NCBI GenBank assembly: GCA_002633185.1
Contig: NWBM01000002.1
Coordinates: 438,832-502,831 of the forward strand
Direction: 5' to 3'
Length of the DNA stretch: 64,000 nt
From: Lachnospiraceae bacterium Phil5
GTDB lineage: Bacteria > Bacillota > Clostridia > TANB77 > CAG-508
The position numbers and the translations under genes were made by a program. A model generated the notes under the pieces. That model was given only the letters and a program-made list of their open reading frames with translations, did not search any database and was not told the DNA's origin. How positions within the stretch are numbered: position 1 is the first letter of the stretch; each line of letters opens with the position of its first letter. Below are positions 3,467 through 57,100 of this stretch, in pieces.

Positions 3467-4358
3467 TAGTAATTCTTCCTAATTTTCCGCTTCTAAACTC
3501 ATCTAACAATATTCCAGAAATTTTTTCATAATCAATTCTTCCACCAGAAAGTATTGCTCCTCTTTTTGTTGCAATAATATTTAATACTTCTAAATAATTA
3601 TCATTTTCATCAACATCCTTGTTTTGTAAAACATCTTGAATTTCTTGCTTTTCTAGTTTGTATCTTTCTACAATATTATCTAAATAATTATTCAACAAAA
3701 ATTTTAAAAGTTCAAATGCAATTTCTGTTTTTTCTAAAATGTCATCTTTAATTGTACCTGTAAATGCCAAATTCATTCCAACTTCTTGGCTTTCAAATTT
3801 AGGCCATAAAATACCTGGCGTGTCCATTAATTCTATTTCATTATCCACCTTTACCCATTGTTTTTGTCTTGTAACACCTGGCTTATTTCCAACTTGCGCT
3901 GTTTTTCTTTTTGTTATTTTATTAATAAATGTTGACTTCCCTACATTAGGAATTCCTAAAATCATTATTCTAATTGATTTTCCAACTCTTCCTTTATTGC
4001 TGAATTTTTCTTGATTTTCTTTTGATACTTCTTTTACTGCTCTTATTACTTCATTTACGCCTTTACCAGAATTGCAATCTACACTTATTGCTGGAATTTC
4101 TTGTTCTTTAAAGTATTTAATCCATTTATTTGTTTCATTTTCGTCTGCCAAATCACTTTTATTTAGTACTACTACTCTCTTTTTGTTTTTGCAATATTCT
4201 TTTATGTCTGGATTTTGGCTAGATATTGGTATTCGTGCATCTAAAACTTCTACTATTACATCTATTAGTTTTAGGTCTTCTAGTATTTGTCTTTTTGTTT
4301 TAGCCATATGGCCCGGATACCAGTTTATATTAGTTTTATTTTCATTCATTTGGATCAT
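3450..4358 (-). CDS. rbgA: Ribosome biogenesis GTPase A (YlqF/RbgA)
   Basis: NWYPGHMAK N-terminal motif; circularly permuted GTPase motifs (LNKSDL then GIPNVGKST). Confidence 0.85.
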   Translation of the reverse strand: MIQMNENKTNINWYPGHMAKTKRQILEDLKLIDVIVEVLDARIPISSQNPDIKEYCKNKKRVVVLNKSDLADENETNKWIKYFKEQEIPAISVDCNSGKGVNEVIRAVKEVSKENQEKFSNKGRVGKSIRIMILGIPNVGKSTFINKITKRKTAQVGNKPGVTRQKQWVKVDNEIELMDTPGILWPKFESQEVGMNLAFTGTIKDDILEKTEIAFELLKFLLNNYLDNIVERYKLEKQEIQDVLQNKDVDENDNYLEVLNIIATKRGAILSGGRIDYEKISGILLDEFRSGKLGRITIEKKE

Positions 4359-4994: not shown

Positions 4995-5846
4995 TTAATA
5001 AAGATTGCTTTTAATTAAATTAAATGTTTTGCAAATATTACACTCTTTGCAAATAATAATTCTTCCTTTAAATATCAATTGCAAAGTATTAATAAAATCA
5101 TCACCTTCTGCAATTAAATGCAAGATAATTTTCTTTGGTAATAAATTTAATAATTCATTTAAACAATAATCCTTTGAAGAAAAAGAAATATCTGATAAAT
5201 ATTTAGCTTTAAAAAATCTTTTATCATATGGAATTACATTTTCGTTTTCATCTAAAATAATTGGTTCAGAATTTGAATAAATTACATGCACTGTTTCTGC
5301 CTTGCTTGGCTGTGAAGTTATATAACCTTGTAACAACTGAATAAATTCCTTATATTCTTTGTCAATTATAAATTTATTAACAGCTATATCAACAACTTCT
5401 GTTAATAAACTTTTATATTCGAATAATCTGAAGTTTACAAATCCATCTAAAATGAAGTATTTGTGCTCATCTATATAATCCATAAAACTTATAAATATTT
5501 TCTCTATTCTATATTCGAAATCTTTTGTATTTTCATCATATAATATTTCTTTACAATTGCTTAAAATATATCTTTTTTCTATTTCATTAAAATAGAAATA
5601 GTCTGAATTTATTAGTCTTTTTACAAGATTAATTTCGTAAAATTTCAGAACGCAATCTGTAAGAACTTTGCCTAACTTCATTGCAAATATTTCTTCCTGT
5701 TTTCCTTTATAATGAACAATTATGTTTTTGTAATTTTTAAATTTATTTTTTGAAACATATATATTGCTTATGTCCATTTTTTCTATTTCTGTTAGTAGAT
5801 AATTTAAAATTATTTCATTATTGTTTTTTATGCAAAAAGATTTCAT
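4995..5846 (-). CDS. Hypothetical protein, YtxC-like (putative sporulation protein)
   Basis: 283 aa, soluble, lysine/asparagine-rich. It resembles YtxC-family proteins of spore formers; recalled from memory and not verified. Confidence 0.4.
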   Translation of the reverse strand: MKSFCIKNNNEIILNYLLTEIEKMDISNIYVSKNKFKNYKNIIVHYKGKQEEIFAMKLGKVLTDCVLKFYEINLVKRLINSDYFYFNEIEKRYILSNCKEILYDENTKDFEYRIEKIFISFMDYIDEHKYFILDGFVNFRLFEYKSLLTEVVDIAVNKFIIDKEYKEFIQLLQGYITSQPSKAETVHVIYSNSEPIILDENENVIPYDKRFFKAKYLSDISFSSKDYCLNELLNLLPKKIILHLIAEGDDFINTLQLIFKGRIIICKECNICKTFNLIKSNLY

Positions 5847-6878: not shown

Positions 6879-7838
6879 ATGGAAAATAAAAAATTAGTAA
6901 CTATTCTAATTCCAGCATATAATGAAGAAGAAGTTTTAAATATGCTTTATGAAAGACTTTATAGTATTATGGAATCTGTTCCAAACTATAATTTTGAACT
7001 ACTTTTTGTTAATGATGGAAGCAAAGATAATACTTTAAATATAATAAAAGATTTAAGAAAAAATGATAAACGTGTTTGTTATTTAAATCTTTCTAGAAAT
7101 TATGGTAAAGAAATTGCAATGATAGCAGGACTTGATTATTCTAAAGGAGATGCAGTTATTATAATTGATGCCGATTTGCAAGATCCACCAGAGCTTATCC
7201 CTCAAATGATTTCTTTATGGGAACAAGGTTATGATGATGTTTATGCTAAAAGAAAATCTAGAAAAGGTGAAACATGGTTAAAGAAATTCACATCAAAAAT
7301 GTATTATAAAACACTTCAAAGTGTAACTAAAATAGAAATCCAAAAAGATACTGGAGATTTCAGATTGTTAGATAGACGTTGTGTGGAAGCTTTAAAGCAA
7401 TTCAGAGAATCTCAAAGATATACAAAAGGCTTATTTAGCTGGATTGGTTATAATAAAAAAGAAATTTTATATGATAGAGACCCTAGAGCAGCTGGAAAAA
7501 CAAAATGGAATTATAGAAAACTTATCAATTTATCTATAGACGGAATCACATCATTTACAACCGCACCATTGCGTTGGGCTACAACAACAGGAATTTTTAT
7601 TTCTATAATAGGTTTTATTTATATGATGTTTATAATAATAAAAACTTTAGCCTACGGTGTAGATGTACCAGGATATTCTTCTACTATGGTTGTAATTCTA
7701 TTTATTGGAGGAATTCAACTAGTATTCTTAGGAATAATTGGCGAATACCTTGGAAGAGCTTTTTACGAAAGCAAGCATAGACCAATTTATTTTATTGATA
7801 CTTATAACGAAGAAAAAGAAACAAATCTACCTAAGTAG
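6879..7838 (+). CDS. Family 2 glycosyltransferase, polyprenyl-phosphate sugar transferase type (GtrB/ArnC-like) with C-terminal TM helices
   Basis: VTILIPAYNEEEV...FVNDGSKDNT...DADLQDPPE GT2 motifs plus two C-terminal TMs. The start is set at ATG 6879 after GGAGG; the track start 6867 overlaps the RBS. Confidence 0.85.
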   Translation: MENKKLVTILIPAYNEEEVLNMLYERLYSIMESVPNYNFELLFVNDGSKDNTLNIIKDLRKNDKRVCYLNLSRNYGKEIAMIAGLDYSKGDAVIIIDADLQDPPELIPQMISLWEQGYDDVYAKRKSRKGETWLKKFTSKMYYKTLQSVTKIEIQKDTGDFRLLDRRCVEALKQFRESQRYTKGLFSWIGYNKKEILYDRDPRAAGKTKWNYRKLINLSIDGITSFTTAPLRWATTTGIFISIIGFIYMMFIIIKTLAYGVDVPGYSSTMVVILFIGGIQLVFLGIIGEYLGRAFYESKHRPIYFIDTYNEEKETNLPK

Positions 7839-7846
7839 GTTTTGGG

Positions 7847-7878
7847 TAGATTTTTTGGGACACCTCACAAAAACATCT
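7847..7878. repeat. Copy 1 of a ~32-bp palindromic repeat with GGGACACCTC core
   Basis: TAGATTTTTTGGGACACCTCACAAAAACATCT. It is similar to copies at 8308-8335 and 57067-57100 (reverse orientation) and lies between convergent GT2 and rhodanese genes. Confidence 0.6.
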
Positions 7879-7952
7879 TGAAAAAATTTTAATGACACAT
7901 GCACAAAAACATTTTATACGAGTTTTTTACATGTGTCTTATTTTTTCTAAAT

Positions 7953-8291
7953 CTATATATTATCTATTCCACCTTTTAAATTATAAACATTTAAATACCC
8001 TAGCTTCTCCAGTTTTAAACATGCTTTTCTACTTCTTCCCCCAGATTGGCAATACACAACAATTAATTCATTTTTATTTTTTATAATTCTTTCTATTTTT
8101 TCTCTTATATCTTGTAAAGGCACATTTATAGCCATATTCAAATGACCTGAATAAAACTCATCTTTTGTTCTAACATCAATAATCCATATTTTTTTATTAG
8201 TTCTCATCATTGTATTTAACGTTGGATAATCTATATCATTATTATATGAACGCATAAATCTATTATGCAGTCTATCAATCAATCTTTTCAT
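7953..8291 (-). CDS. Rhodanese-like sulfurtransferase domain protein
   Basis: CQSGGRSRKACLKLEKLGY active-site Cys loop. Start chosen at the second ATG (8291), 7 nt after GGAGG. Confidence 0.8.
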   Translation of the reverse strand: MKRLIDRLHNRFMRSYNNDIDYPTLNTMMRTNKKIWIIDVRTKDEFYSGHLNMAINVPLQDIREKIERIIKNKNELIVVYCQSGGRSRKACLKLEKLGYLNVYNLKGGIDNI

Positions 8292-8307
8292 CATTCTTCC
8301 TCCTATG

Positions 8308-8335
8308 GATTTTTTGGGACACCTCCAAAAATCTA
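8308..8335. repeat. Copy 2 of the palindromic GGGACACCTCC repeat (in rhodanese 5' UTR)
   Basis: GGATTTTTTGGGACACCTCCAAAAATCTA; stem GATTTTTTGG/CCAAAAATC around a GC-rich loop. It is a direct repeat of copy 1 across the rhodanese gene. Confidence 0.6.
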
Positions 8336-8337
8336 CT

Positions 8338-8378
8338 AAAAAAAACATTATGATATATAATATTCATAATGTTTTTTT
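8338..8378. terminator. Bidirectional terminator hairpin
   Basis: A-run, then AACATTATGA..TCATAATGTT, then T-run; immediately downstream of the secF-like stop. Confidence 0.5.
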
Positions 8379-8382
8379 ATGT

Positions 8383-9015
8383 TTATTCTTTTTCACTTTT
8401 TATTTGTTTTTCAAATCCACATGCTAGGAATGTTGTAATTATAAAGAAGATTGCAATTGAACCAGGCATTACTAATCTATTTACTGGAAATCTTGTAATT
8501 GCAATTACTGAAACATATAATGCTTCTGCCAATGCATTTAGTATTATAAATTGTCCTATAACTTTTACAATTCCTATTTTTCTGTATCTAATAGACATAT
8601 ATACTAGTCCAACAATTGATGCTATTAACATTGGTAGTATAAATGATTTTGCTATATCTCTTAATCTGTATTTTGGAACTACTTTTACATTTATGCTTTC
8701 TGCTGTAGTTTCAAGTCCATATTTTTCATTTAATTTTGTACTTAACTTTTCTTTTTGTTCATCATTTATTCCATTTACATTTAATATTAATGTATCACTA
8801 TAAACTCCACTTGATTTAATTTCAACCTTTTCTTTAGGGAAAATTTCATCAGTTATTGATTTTATATCTGCCACTTTGAACTCTTGTCCAATTTGCACTG
8901 AAACTAAGCTATATTGTTTGTATGAATAATCTACTTTAAAGCCTAATACTGCAACAATAATTATACCAATAAGGATTACACCTGCTGTTGCTATAACGTA
9001 TATTTTATTTTTCAT
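8383..9015 (-). CDS. SecF-like membrane protein (short, divergent)
   Basis: 210 aa; an N-terminal TM, a periplasmic domain, then about 3 TMs. It sits downstream of a SecD-like gene within the yajC locus but lacks the canonical 6-TM SecF core. Confidence 0.4.
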   Translation of the reverse strand: MKNKIYVIATAGVILIGIIIVAVLGFKVDYSYKQYSLVSVQIGQEFKVADIKSITDEIFPKEKVEIKSSGVYSDTLILNVNGINDEQKEKLSTKLNEKYGLETTAESINVKVVPKYRLRDIAKSFILPMLIASIVGLVYMSIRYRKIGIVKVIGQFIILNALAEALYVSVIAITRFPVNRLVMPGSIAIFFIITTFLACGFEKQIKSEKE

Positions 9016-23795: not shown

Positions 23796-24100
23796 TCTTC
23801 TACCTCCTATAAAAAAACATAGCCATTCCATCCTTTTTAGGACGAAATGGCTATTACTCCGCGGTACCACCTATTTTAAAAGACATAATAATCTTTTCAC
23901 TCTAAATTTCTTTAACGCAGAATTACGTCTTATATTACTAATTGCATATTATGCAACTTTCACATAAGCAACTTAAAGGTGATAACAAATAAATTATTAT
24001 CTTACTAGAATTTCAGCATACATCTAGCTCTCTGTTAGTTTTACTTTATTTGTGTTGTCCTTTTCATAGTTTTTTGTTTTAATAGTTATATGATAACATA
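23796..24100 (-). promoter_or_regulatory. T-box riboswitch leader of ileS
   Basis: Reverse complement of 23860-23872 gives the conserved T-box sequence GGTGGTACCGCGG. A terminator hairpin (23812-23850) plus a U-run lies immediately upstream of the ileS RBS. Confidence 0.65.
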
Positions 24101-39194: not shown

Positions 39195-39280
39195 TGGTGG
39201 GCAGGGATGGATTCGAACCATCGTACTCGTATGAGAACAGATTTACAGTCTGCCGCCTTTAGCCACTCGGCCACCTACCC
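39195..39280 (-). tRNA. tRNA-Tyr (GUA), type II with long variable arm
   Basis: Reverse complement GGGTAGGTGGCCGAGTGGCTAAAGGCGGCAGACTGTAAATCTG...CCCTGCCCACCA; anticodon loop CTGTAAA, 86 nt. Confidence 0.9.
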
Positions 39281-39364: not shown

Positions 39365-39441
39365 TTGGTGCGCCCTCTAGGATTCGAACCTAGGACCAAC
39401 CGGTTATGAGCCGGTTGCTCTGACCAACTGAGCTAAGGGCG
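39365..39441 (-). tRNA. tRNA with CAU anticodon, tRNA-Ile2 (lysidine) type
   Basis: Reverse complement GCGCCCTTAGCTCAGTTGGTCAGAGCAACCGGCTCATAACCGGTTGGTCCTAGGTTCGAATCCTAGAGGGCGCACCA. The anticodon arm and body closely match Bacillus tRNA-Ile2(CAU) rather than initiator or elongator Met. Confidence 0.7.
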
Positions 39442-39596
39442 CGTGTTTGTATCAACAATAACTAGTATATACTACCAAGACAGTGTTGTCAAGATTTTTT
39501 TAAATTTTTTTACTAATTTTTATAAAAAATTACAGGTAGTCTTTTTGCAATTGTCTTATTTAGTAATAATCTTTATAGACTACCTGAATTTATCTT

Positions 39597-55709: not shown

Positions 55710-56297
55710 TTATTCAGCGTCTGTTGTTTCTTCAGTTTTTTCTTCACTAGCTGGAGCTTCTTCTGCTGTTTCTTCAGCTACTTCTTCTGCAGCTTCTTCA
55801 ACTGTTTCCTCAGCTTTAACTTCTTCAGCAGCTGGTGTTTCTGCAGCTTCTACAACAGCTTCTTCTACTGGTGCAGCTACTTCTTCTACAACTTCTTCAG
55901 CAGGAGCTTCTGCTAAATCTTCTTTAATAGTAATTTCTTTATCTTCAATTCTTGCTCCTATAGCTTCTTTAGTCTTAGCAGCTTTACCTACTCTATCTCT
56001 TAAATAGAATAATTTAGCTCTTCTTGCTTTACCAACTCTTACTAATTCAACTTTTTCAACCATTGGTGAATGTACTAAGAAAGTTTTTTCAACACCTACA
56101 CCATAAGCAACTCTTCTTACTGTAAATGTAGCGTTAACTCCTCCACCTTGTTTTTTAATTATTATTCCTTCGAATACTTGGATTCTTTCTCTATTACCTT
56201 CCTTAATTCTTTGGTGAACTCTAACAGTATCTCCAACTTTTAAGGCAGGAATTTTATTTTTCATTTGCTCGTGTTCAATAGATTTTATAATATCCAT
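55710..56297 (-). CDS. rplS: 50S ribosomal protein L19 with about 80-aa acidic Ala/Glu/Val-rich C-terminal extension
   Basis: An N-terminal 115 aa canonical L19 ([11 protein letters not shown]...[14 protein letters not shown]), then [42 protein letters not shown].... Confidence 0.9.
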
Positions 56298-56370: not shown

Positions 56371-57042
56371 TTATTTTTCCAGTAATTCTGGTCTTTTTTT
56401 CTTGGTTATTTGTAAAGCTTGTTCTTCTCTCCATTTGCGAATATTTTCATGATGTCCAGAAATTAATACCTCTGGAACCTTTACACCATTAAATACTTCT
56501 GGTCTTGTATATTGTGGATATTCCAATAAATTATTTCCATTTGAAAAAGATTCTTCTGAAGTTGATTCTTCACTTATAACTCCTTCAATATATCTACTAA
56601 CAGAATCTATTAAAACCATTGCTGGAATTTCTCCTCCTGTTAATACATAATCACCTATTGATATTTCCTCATCTACAATTTCATCTAATACTCTTTGGTC
56701 TATTCCTTCATAGTGTCCGCAAAGTAGGATTAAATGCTTTTCTTTACTTAATTCAATAACCTTGTTTTGATTTAGTACCTTACCTTGTGGAGACATATAT
56801 ATAACTTTTGCTTCATCAGACTTAACTGAATTGTATGCATCATATACTACATCTGGTCTTATAACCATTCCTGCTCCTCCACCATATGGAGTGTCATCAA
56901 CATTTTTGTGTTTATCTTTTGAAAAATCTCTAATGTTTATTAAATTGATATTTATTAAATCTCTTTCAATTGCTTTTCCTATAATGCTTTCGTTTAATGA
57001 ACTAAACATTTCTGGAAAAAGTGTTAAAACATCAAATTTCAT
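56371..57042 (-). CDS. trmD: tRNA (guanine37-N1)-methyltransferase
   Basis: MKFDVLTLFPEMF, SPOUT knot motifs, and GGEIPAMVLIDSV. Confidence 0.95.
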   Translation of the reverse strand: MKFDVLTLFPEMFSSLNESIIGKAIERDLININLINIRDFSKDKHKNVDDTPYGGGAGMVIRPDVVYDAYNSVKSDEAKVIYMSPQGKVLNQNKVIELSKEKHLILLCGHYEGIDQRVLDEIVDEEISIGDYVLTGGEIPAMVLIDSVSRYIEGVISEESTSEESFSNGNNLLEYPQYTRPEVFNGVKVPEVLISGHHENIRKWREEQALQITKKKRPELLEK

Positions 57043-57066
57043 TTTGCTACACTCCTTTCTTTTGGT

Positions 57067-57100
57067 AAGATGTTTTTTGGAGGTGTCCCCAAAAATCTAT
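57067..57100. repeat. Copy 3 (reverse orientation) of the palindromic GGGACACCTCC repeat, overlapping the rimM stop
   Basis: AAGATGTTTTTTGGAGGTGTCCCCAAAAATCTAT. On the operon mRNA it reads ...GGGGACACCUCC..., an anti-SD mimic 25 nt upstream of the trmD SD AAAGGAGUG. Confidence 0.6.

Follow-up and report, generated by a model that had tools for sequence, protein, structure and literature searches.

A REP-like dispersed palindrome in the intergenic DNA of uncultured gut Clostridia

Introduction

In Escherichia coli, repetitive extragenic palindromes (REPs) protect the 3' ends of transcripts from exonucleases and interfere with terminating ribosomes when their hairpin lies no more than about 15 nt from the stop codon. 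REPs in general are imperfect palindromes of 20-40 bp that occur in tens to hundreds of copies outside of genes, mostly just downstream of stop codons, in both orientations and in gaps between co-directional as well as convergent genes, and they form inverted doublets, fall into lineage-specific classes and carry extra modules in a mosaic fashion (PMC3733652, PMC2817692, PMC3116915). Firmicutes go unmentioned in these surveys of REPs (PMC3733652, PMC2817692, PMC3116915), and the intergenic DNA of low-GC Firmicutes shows an enrichment of stem-loops that large repeat families do not explain (PMC1590033). Here we describe a REP-like hairpin element of about 30 bp that occurs three times in a 64-kb stretch of contig NWBM01000002.1 of Lachnospiraceae bacterium Phil5 (the whole of this stretch is called the window below), twice beside a small rhodanese gene and once between rimM and trmD.

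The element contains the Shine-Dalgarno (SD) sequence on one strand and its complement (anti-SD) on the other, and regulators with an anti-SD sequence or a C-rich loop are one point of comparison. They include hairpins of 5' untranslated regions that sequester the SD, the small RNAs of Staphylococcus with UCCC loops and the STAB-SD stabiliser of Bacillus. Among the small repeats of Firmicutes are BOX, RUP and SPRITE of pneumococci and bcr of Bacillus cereus, which measure about 100-200 bp and are either modular or similar to miniature inverted-repeat transposable elements (MITEs) with terminal inverted repeats. The Efa repeat of Enterococcus is a further one (PMC1590033). An earlier note on the window had offered three roles for the element, namely a REP-like intergenic repeat, a recombination site for gene cassettes or a translational modulator that sequesters the SD.

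Results

The three copies in the window are members of a dispersed, lineage-restricted repeat of a few uncultured, AT-rich gut Clostridia lineages. They lie where the earlier note had placed them (Table 1): copies 1 and 2 bracket the rhodanese open reading frame (ORF) in direct orientation, and copy 3 is inverted and overlaps the stop codon of rimM. Common to all three is the core GGGACACCTC(C/A) within an imperfect palindrome of about 30 bp. The 26-mer GATTTTTTGGGACACCTCCAAAAATC has three matches in the window at up to three mismatches and none in 100 dinucleotide-preserving shuffles, and the 11-mer core has three at up to one mismatch where 0.07 are expected; no fourth copy was found in the 64 kb even with loose sequence and structural patterns. 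The copies are no assembly artefact, since other, independently assembled genomes of this species (L044-L046) have them too. At the copies, Rfam had no family to offer, neither at gathering thresholds over the whole window nor at E-value thresholds over positions 7780-8420.

Beyond the window, an exact-pattern scan with TTTTKGGGACACCTCMMAAAA over one genome per species (185,579 species) returned 43 loci with around 50 exact matches. About 38 of these loci belong to a single uncultured Clostridia metagenome-assembled genome (MAG), CALXZS01 ("BRZ_LP bin49", here bin49), a few to three other Clostridia MAGs (CAMIVO01 and the sheep-gut MAGs RGIG5862 and RGIG6952), and one is a chance match inside an ORF of a genome with 55% G+C. 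A relaxed search of the retrieved DNA, which consists of genome fragments, gave 71 non-redundant copies. Fragments of one MAG hold at least 60 copies, a count for these fragments and not for the genome as a whole, and the species of the window has five in about 67 kb, including a doublet beyond the window. Viral contigs yielded no matches, phage and plasmid collections only matches at chance level (E >= 0.3), and a full-text literature search with the core sequence turned up nothing but unrelated eukaryotic primers, with no bacterial context. The census of the motif that the earlier note had suggested, run here on fragments, finds it abundant and widely placed, which is the outcome that the note itself had named as speaking against any special role.

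Using a simple ORF-based gene model in which about 85% of the DNA is coding, we found 64 of the 71 non-redundant copies to be intergenic (p = 5e-43); the other seven mostly fall into short or doubtful ORFs or are a chance match. Most copies follow a stop codon at a distance of 0-25 nt, in either orientation, with a median of 12 nt from the edge of the palindrome to the nearest stop codon and with 19 of 56 copies at 5 nt or less or overlapping it. Among these 19 close copies the stop codon is TAG in 10, as compared to 21.5% TAG overall (p = 0.003), an excess that fits an end of the element (TAGCTGT... or TAGATTT...) supplying the stop. Between co-directional genes the transcript carries CACCUCC in 21 cases and GGAGGUG in 15 (p = 0.41), so that there is no orientation bias; the copies abutting a stop codon lean towards CACCUCC in the mRNA (14 versus 5, p = 0.06). 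Convergent gene pairs enclose seven copies and divergent pairs five. Where copies lie close together, the genes between them are ordinary and without a common function (encoding an ATPase, Fic, NUDIX, HEPN/MNT and AdhE proteins and others). With abundant, dispersed, intergenic copies in both orientations that are present or absent at orthologous sites (see below), the role of a REP-like intergenic repeat, first among those proposed earlier, is supported.

The copies of bin49 are nearly identical, with the consensus AAGCTGTTTTTGGGGACACCTCCCAAAAACAGCTT forming a stem of 14-15 bp and a loop of 5-7 nt. Each unit is built from an A/T-rich stem, TTTTTGGG(G) paired with (C)CCAAAAA, that closes on an asymmetric, conserved G+C apex, GGGACACCTCC. 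Inner stem and apex are kept across lineages as TTTTGGG(G)ACACCTCC(C)AAAA, while the outer arms differ and stay complementary: they read AGATGC...GCATCT in L043, TGA...TCA in L018, ATGC...GCA in L013 and L040, and AGAT...ATCT in the species of the window. The apex, GGGACACCT(CC), is the anti-SD sequence and is invariant across the lineages with diverged outer arms. In copies 2 and 3 of the window, the core contains the complete anti-SD heptamer CACCTCC. The earlier description of the core as an SD/anti-SD pair (CACCTCC/GGAGGTG) stands as a reading of the letters, with the deviation of copy 1 given in Table 1, but we found no evidence that links it to a function.

The hairpin is maintained in the family. 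Its consensus is predicted to fold as RNA at -20.9 kcal/mol (z = -5.5 against shuffles), and in an alignment of 27 sequences six stem pairs have changed on both sides (21 cells compared to 10.8 in shuffles, a value reached by none of 500) with the given stem register outscoring every slid register. In the window the predicted hairpins are weak, with -10.4 kcal/mol for copy 3, -6.0 for copy 2 and -4.9 for copy 1 (-6.2 on its other strand), and copy 3 alone is clearly better than shuffles (z = -2.9). The self-complementarity that the earlier note ascribed to the arms is only imperfect.

Several copies are extended or arranged in ways that go beyond the single hairpin. In 17 of 68 copies, copy 1 of the window included, a TTTTG(G) half-arm stands 5' of the left arm, as compared to a background of 5% (p = 3e-8), which gives the unit a polarity, and a subset carries 3' modules after the right arm (TTRACATAA or GTTACAA) in a mosaic like that of BIMEs. 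At the bin49 loci (L001-L043; CALXZS01), 7 of 68 copies gain a TTGACA hexamer through the module ACAGCTT(A/G)ACATAA 3' of the hairpin, and 5 of 68 have GTTACAAWT. Most copies are solitary, with eight inverted doublets whose cores are 36-75 bp apart across unconserved spacers and with three tandem pairs. The doublet of the window's species, AGATTTTTGGGACACCTCCAAAAAACATCTT gaga ATGTTTTTGGGAGGTGTCCCAAAAACTCT (L044, 2290-2355), lies about 740 nt past the right end of the window between the convergent genes valS and spoVAC, where the closest relative carries a different neighbour gene, and could fold as a longer, REPIN-like hairpin. At L018 (4060-4125), the element stands in tandem units of 39 bp with identical spacers, a local tandem duplication and no CRISPR array. 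One bin49 copy (L025, around 5720-5745) directly follows a tRNA gene at its 3' end (...GGTTCGAGTCCCTCCAAGCGCACCA), and a toxin-antitoxin-like HEPN/MNT gene pair separates it from the next copy. In the repeat-rich MAG, many contigs have a copy close to an end, no more than a few hundred bases away.

For the junction of rimM and trmD, a metagenome scan with TrmD gave 80 loci of 70-90% identity (833 kb) with around 70 distinct junctions, in which the SD and start codon of trmD follow the rimM stop codon by 0-25 nt and none of which has the element; the core is absent from all of these 833 kb, and a search of the same DNA for sister hairpin families (T-run/G-run...C-run/A-run) gave one unrelated match. 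The closest relatives read ggtttaatataa/gaaaggaatg (L057) and ggtttaatctaa/gaaaggaatg (L052) where the window has ggtttagtatag-(insert)-gaaaggagtg and the stop codon of rimM has changed from TAA to TAG. Because the relatives lack the element, copy 3 is a lineage-specific insertion exactly at the rimM stop codon. Its CCUCC precedes the GGAG of trmD by 23 nt, and the earlier note had suggested that it sequesters this SD. The element folds on itself, however, so that CCUCC sits inside its own stem in the minimum free energy (MFE) as well as the centroid structure, and a possible duplex of the core with the ribosome-binding site (RBS) of trmD (-8.5 kcal/mol) is weaker than the hairpin of the element. 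Folding of the junction with and without the element, as had been proposed, gave no sign of sequestration: the mean unpaired probability of the trmD RBS is 0.35 with the element in place and 0.32 after its deletion in silico, and the whole junction folds at the level of shuffles (z = 0.1). With the self-pairing predicted by these models and the lack of conservation at the distinct junctions, a cis-regulatory hairpin that sequesters the SD was rejected as unsupported.

The rhodanese locus had looked like a cassette bounded by repeats whose presence might vary among relatives. Two homologous loci, L047 (83% identity) and L051 (66%), share the order of secD-like, secF-like, rhodanese and convergent GT2 genes. 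L047 holds an orthologue of copy 1, aagatgttttttgaaggtgtccccaaaaatctac, and has only the half-arm GGATTTTTTGGA at the site of copy 2; at the place of an unrelated terminator-like hairpin of the window (7894-7937), it has a further copy in inverted orientation. In L051 the copy 2 site is empty, and neither side of the rhodanese gene has a copy. Synteny is thus kept with one or both copies missing, which shows that the rhodanese gene predates the repeats and does not depend on them and leaves the idea of a cassette bounded by recombination sites without a basis in these relatives, where it is the gene that is kept. The copy 1 orthologue in L047 makes copy 1 older than the split of the two lineages, and copies 1 and 2 differ in evolutionary age. 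No integrase was found among the called neighbours of the rhodanese loci, and an integron-type cassette bounded by attC sites was rejected on this ground and on that of the stable gene synteny.

Some other features of these loci deserve mention. Downstream of the rhodanese gene, L051 has a different short repeat (4215-4275) with GATGCCAAAAGG-like units and a CCAAAAGGGGCGGTTTTGG hairpin beside a run of N, which may represent another small repeat family. The SecD-like membrane protein of the window has an acidic low-complexity insert (Table 1), and its homologues in L047 and L051 have no precomputed Pfam match.

We also considered the element as an intrinsic (Rho-independent) terminator, in which a G+C-rich stem leads straight into a U-tract. 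Across the family, four T residues follow within 13 nt of the right arm in 17 of 68 copies. Direct reading shows no U-tract after any of the three window copies, and in a terminator scan of positions 7600-8600, which cover copies 1 and 2, no site resembling a terminator was called, with promoter-like matches at the level of shuffles; this candidate was rejected on these grounds. Between the secF-like gene and the rhodanese gene, the window has a separate AT-rich, bidirectional terminator-like hairpin (8340-8379), ACATTATGA...TCATAATGT, flanked by A and T runs and kept in L047 and L051, which the simple terminator scan does not call because its stem is free of G-C pairs.

Table 1. Coordinates of the repeat copies, their neighbours and further features in the 64-kb window
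Feature	Position	Strand	Description
Half-arm GGTTTTGGG	7838..7846	+	Adjoins the left arm of copy 1 on the 5' side
Copy 1	7847-7878	+	TAGATTTTTTGGGACACCTCACAAAAACATCT; degenerate, core CACCTCA (differs from the anti-SD heptamer at one position); GT2 gene (convergent, stop codon 7836-7838) on one side and rhodanese gene on the other
Rhodanese gene	7953-8294	-	113 aa; PF00581 on homologues; context, stable syntenic gene outside the repeat
Copy 2	8307-8336	+	GGATTTTTTGGGACACCTCCAAAAATCTAC; rhodanese mRNA strand GGAGGUGUCCC; 2 nt between its end and the rhodanese SD AGGAGG (8299-8304, minus strand)
SecD-like gene	9036-10454	-	Membrane protein with acidic low-complexity insert (EEASEETSEENTEENTEEITEENAEENAAEEEN)
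T-box leader	23835-24076	-	Rfam RF00230, 100 bits
tRNA genes	2910-2981, 39198-39280, 39369-39442	-	
RplS ORF	55710-56297	-	Ribosomal protein L19; 195 aa; the C-terminal 80 or so residues form an acidic tail, rich in Ala, Glu and Val, that is unusual for L19
trmD	57040-57042 (start codon)	-	Context; SD AAGGAGUG at 57050-57057
Insert at rimM-trmD	57060..57096	-	About 37 bp; copy 3 minus the stop codon, plus trailing TA and CCAAAA half-arm
Copy 3	57067-57099	-	Minus-strand sequence TAGATTTTTGGGGACACCTCCAAAAAACATCTT, opening with the rimM stop codon TAG (57097-57099)

Discussion

We consider it likely that the copies are REP-like, non-autonomous hairpin repeats of around 30-37 bp that have multiplied between the genes of a few gut Clostridia lineages. 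This reading builds on their dispersed, lineage-restricted and intergenic distribution, their gain and loss at orthologous sites and the maintenance of their hairpin, all of which we observed. New copies would arise by insertion, most probably via a single-strand hairpin intermediate that is recognised by an enzyme acting in trans, as we infer from the analogy with REP/RAYT and IS200/IS605 systems. Copies would then amplify within lineages, decay, and persist where they are harmless, which should be chiefly just after stop codons and sometimes directly on them with an end of the element (TAG...) serving as the stop; they may also settle beside older copies and in this way give rise to inverted doublets. 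Once transcribed, copies would be ordinary hairpins in 3' or intercistronic mRNA, and their effect on the host, by analogy with REPs, could be a stabilisation of 3' ends or a hindrance of ribosomes that terminate near the hairpin. The identity of the apex with the anti-SD and SD sequences would be a feature by which the mobilising enzyme recognises it or a coincidence.

A number of points weigh against this reading. No transposase was found in a weak test, a tblastn search of 1.2 Mb of genome fragments for IS200/RAYT-like proteins with IS608 TnpA and E. coli RAYT as queries, and none is encoded by the genes between nearby copies. With TA as the candidate target-site duplication, neither the flanks of the copies nor the filled and empty sites at the rimM-trmD junction showed a consistent duplication or a clean boundary. 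An invariant apex with diverged outer arms could reflect a host function instead of recognition by a transposase, and the difference between copy 2 and L047 fits a partial deletion as well as an insertion. The copies in the window fold weakly and may for this reason be decaying relics, and the census rests on genome fragments.

Two direct copies around a single small gene are what one would expect if they were attC-like sites for site-specific recombination that bound a mobile rhodanese cassette, but this is very improbable given that the gene keeps its context where one copy (L047) or both (L051) are missing, that no integrase is called nearby and that copies 1 and 2 are of different ages; moreover, most members of the family are solitary, and those that lie close to each other flank unrelated genes in mixed orientations. 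We also find it improbable that the element is a module controlling translation or mRNA stability in an orientation-dependent manner, in which CACCUCC would lower translation as an anti-SD mimic and GGAGGUG would recruit 30S subunits as a decoy SD and serve as a stabiliser or standby site. The exact match of the apex to the anti-SD heptamer or its complement in all lineages would suit such a module, as would the location of several copies 0-15 nt upstream of an SD (L004, L019, L020, L036, L037 and copies 2 and 3 of the window), the possible duplex with the trmD RBS and the orientation lean of the stop-abutting copies. Against it stand the pairing of CCUCC within its own stem, the unchanged accessibility of the trmD RBS, the shuffle-like fold of the whole junction and the relatives' junctions without the element, together with the lack of an overall orientation bias, the many copies between convergent genes and the fact that for most copies the upstream stop codon is nearer than the downstream start.

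A motif that began as a host function, with copies recruited or kept by selection instead of spreading as selfish DNA, be it a site for nucleoid-associated proteins or topoisomerases, a hairpin for RNases or RNA-binding proteins or a weak terminator, could account for the conservation of apex and inner stem across lineages with covarying outer arms. It would likewise fit a placement after stop codons like that of terminators and in line with known host roles of REPs, and the runs of four T shortly after the right arm (17/68 copies). Nevertheless, we regard it as improbable, because near-identical copies within one MAG speak for recent amplification, presence or absence at orthologous sites is specific to lineages, the flanking genes share no functional theme, and most copies, with all three of the window among them, have no U-tract and the scan of the rhodanese region called no terminator. 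A further reading, in which the family is more than selfish DNA, is unlikely as well: the mobile hairpin could be an orientation-dependent module that interacts with ribosomes, and/or be mobilised by a non-RAYT mechanism that targets stop codons (TA/A) and brings its own TAG. The latter would turn it into a REP-type system of low-GC Firmicutes that employs a new mobilising enzyme. We keep this possibility in view because the apex is conserved beyond what a hairpin needs, because of the TAG excess and the orientation lean, and because no known transposase was seen. One orientation of such a module may act as decoy SD or 30S standby site and stabiliser and the other as anti-SD competitor. The invariant apex itself may be a determinant by which a mobilising enzyme recognises the element, a coincidence, or a means of interacting with ribosomes. 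The last of these, which has a low probability, draws on two weak hints, the lean in orientation and the excess of TAG, and the anti-SD identity of the core may be incidental.

As a family of REP-like repeats, the element extends the REP-like amplification of short palindromes to uncultured low-GC gut Clostridia. It can serve as a lineage marker and is a source of insertion polymorphism at the level of strains, but it can also break metagenome assemblies and sets a trap for annotation when a copy is taken for a site of regulation or for the edge of a cassette. Its importance would be greater if a mobilising enzyme or a role at the ribosome were found.

Compared to the systems introduced at the outset, the element agrees best with the REP, BIME and REPIN sequences of Proteobacteria that depend on RAYT transposases of the Y1 type, with which it shares size, palindromy, an extragenic site after genes, both orientations, doublets and lineage-specific classes; in broad terms it is, like them, a stem-loop palindrome that lies outside and downstream of genes. 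It differs in its host, which is a low-GC Clostridia lineage, and in a stem that is rich in A and T with only a short G+C apex. The REPs tagged with GTAG or CGTC (PMC3733652) have an unpaired tag that is missing here: the main lineage begins with AAGCTGT, and while GTAG is present in four of seven copies of the window's lineage, the AG of this tetranucleotide is paired in the outer stem AGAT/ATCT. REPIN units come mainly as inverted doublets around a short spacer, in genomes with a single-copy RAYT gene that the repeats flank; here only about a quarter of the copies form doublets, and no RAYT was found in the fragments with the queries named above. MITEs, defined by terminal inverted repeats, an internal region of 50-500 bp and a target-site duplication, were rejected as a class for this element, which is a single hairpin of about 33 bp with no consistent duplication.

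The small repeats BOX, RUP, SPRITE, Efa and bcr of other Firmicutes are likewise intergenic, hairpin-forming, restricted to lineages, located near the 3' ends of genes and co-transcribed with them. By description, our element is set apart from them as a single hairpin of about 33 bp. With the anti-SD and C-rich regulators it shares a CACCUCC or GGAGGUG near ribosome-binding sites in a transcript, but it folds on itself, is not conserved at orthologous junctions and is tied to start codons neither by position nor by orientation. Taken together, it is a REP-like dispersed palindrome, a familiar type of element whose host is new.

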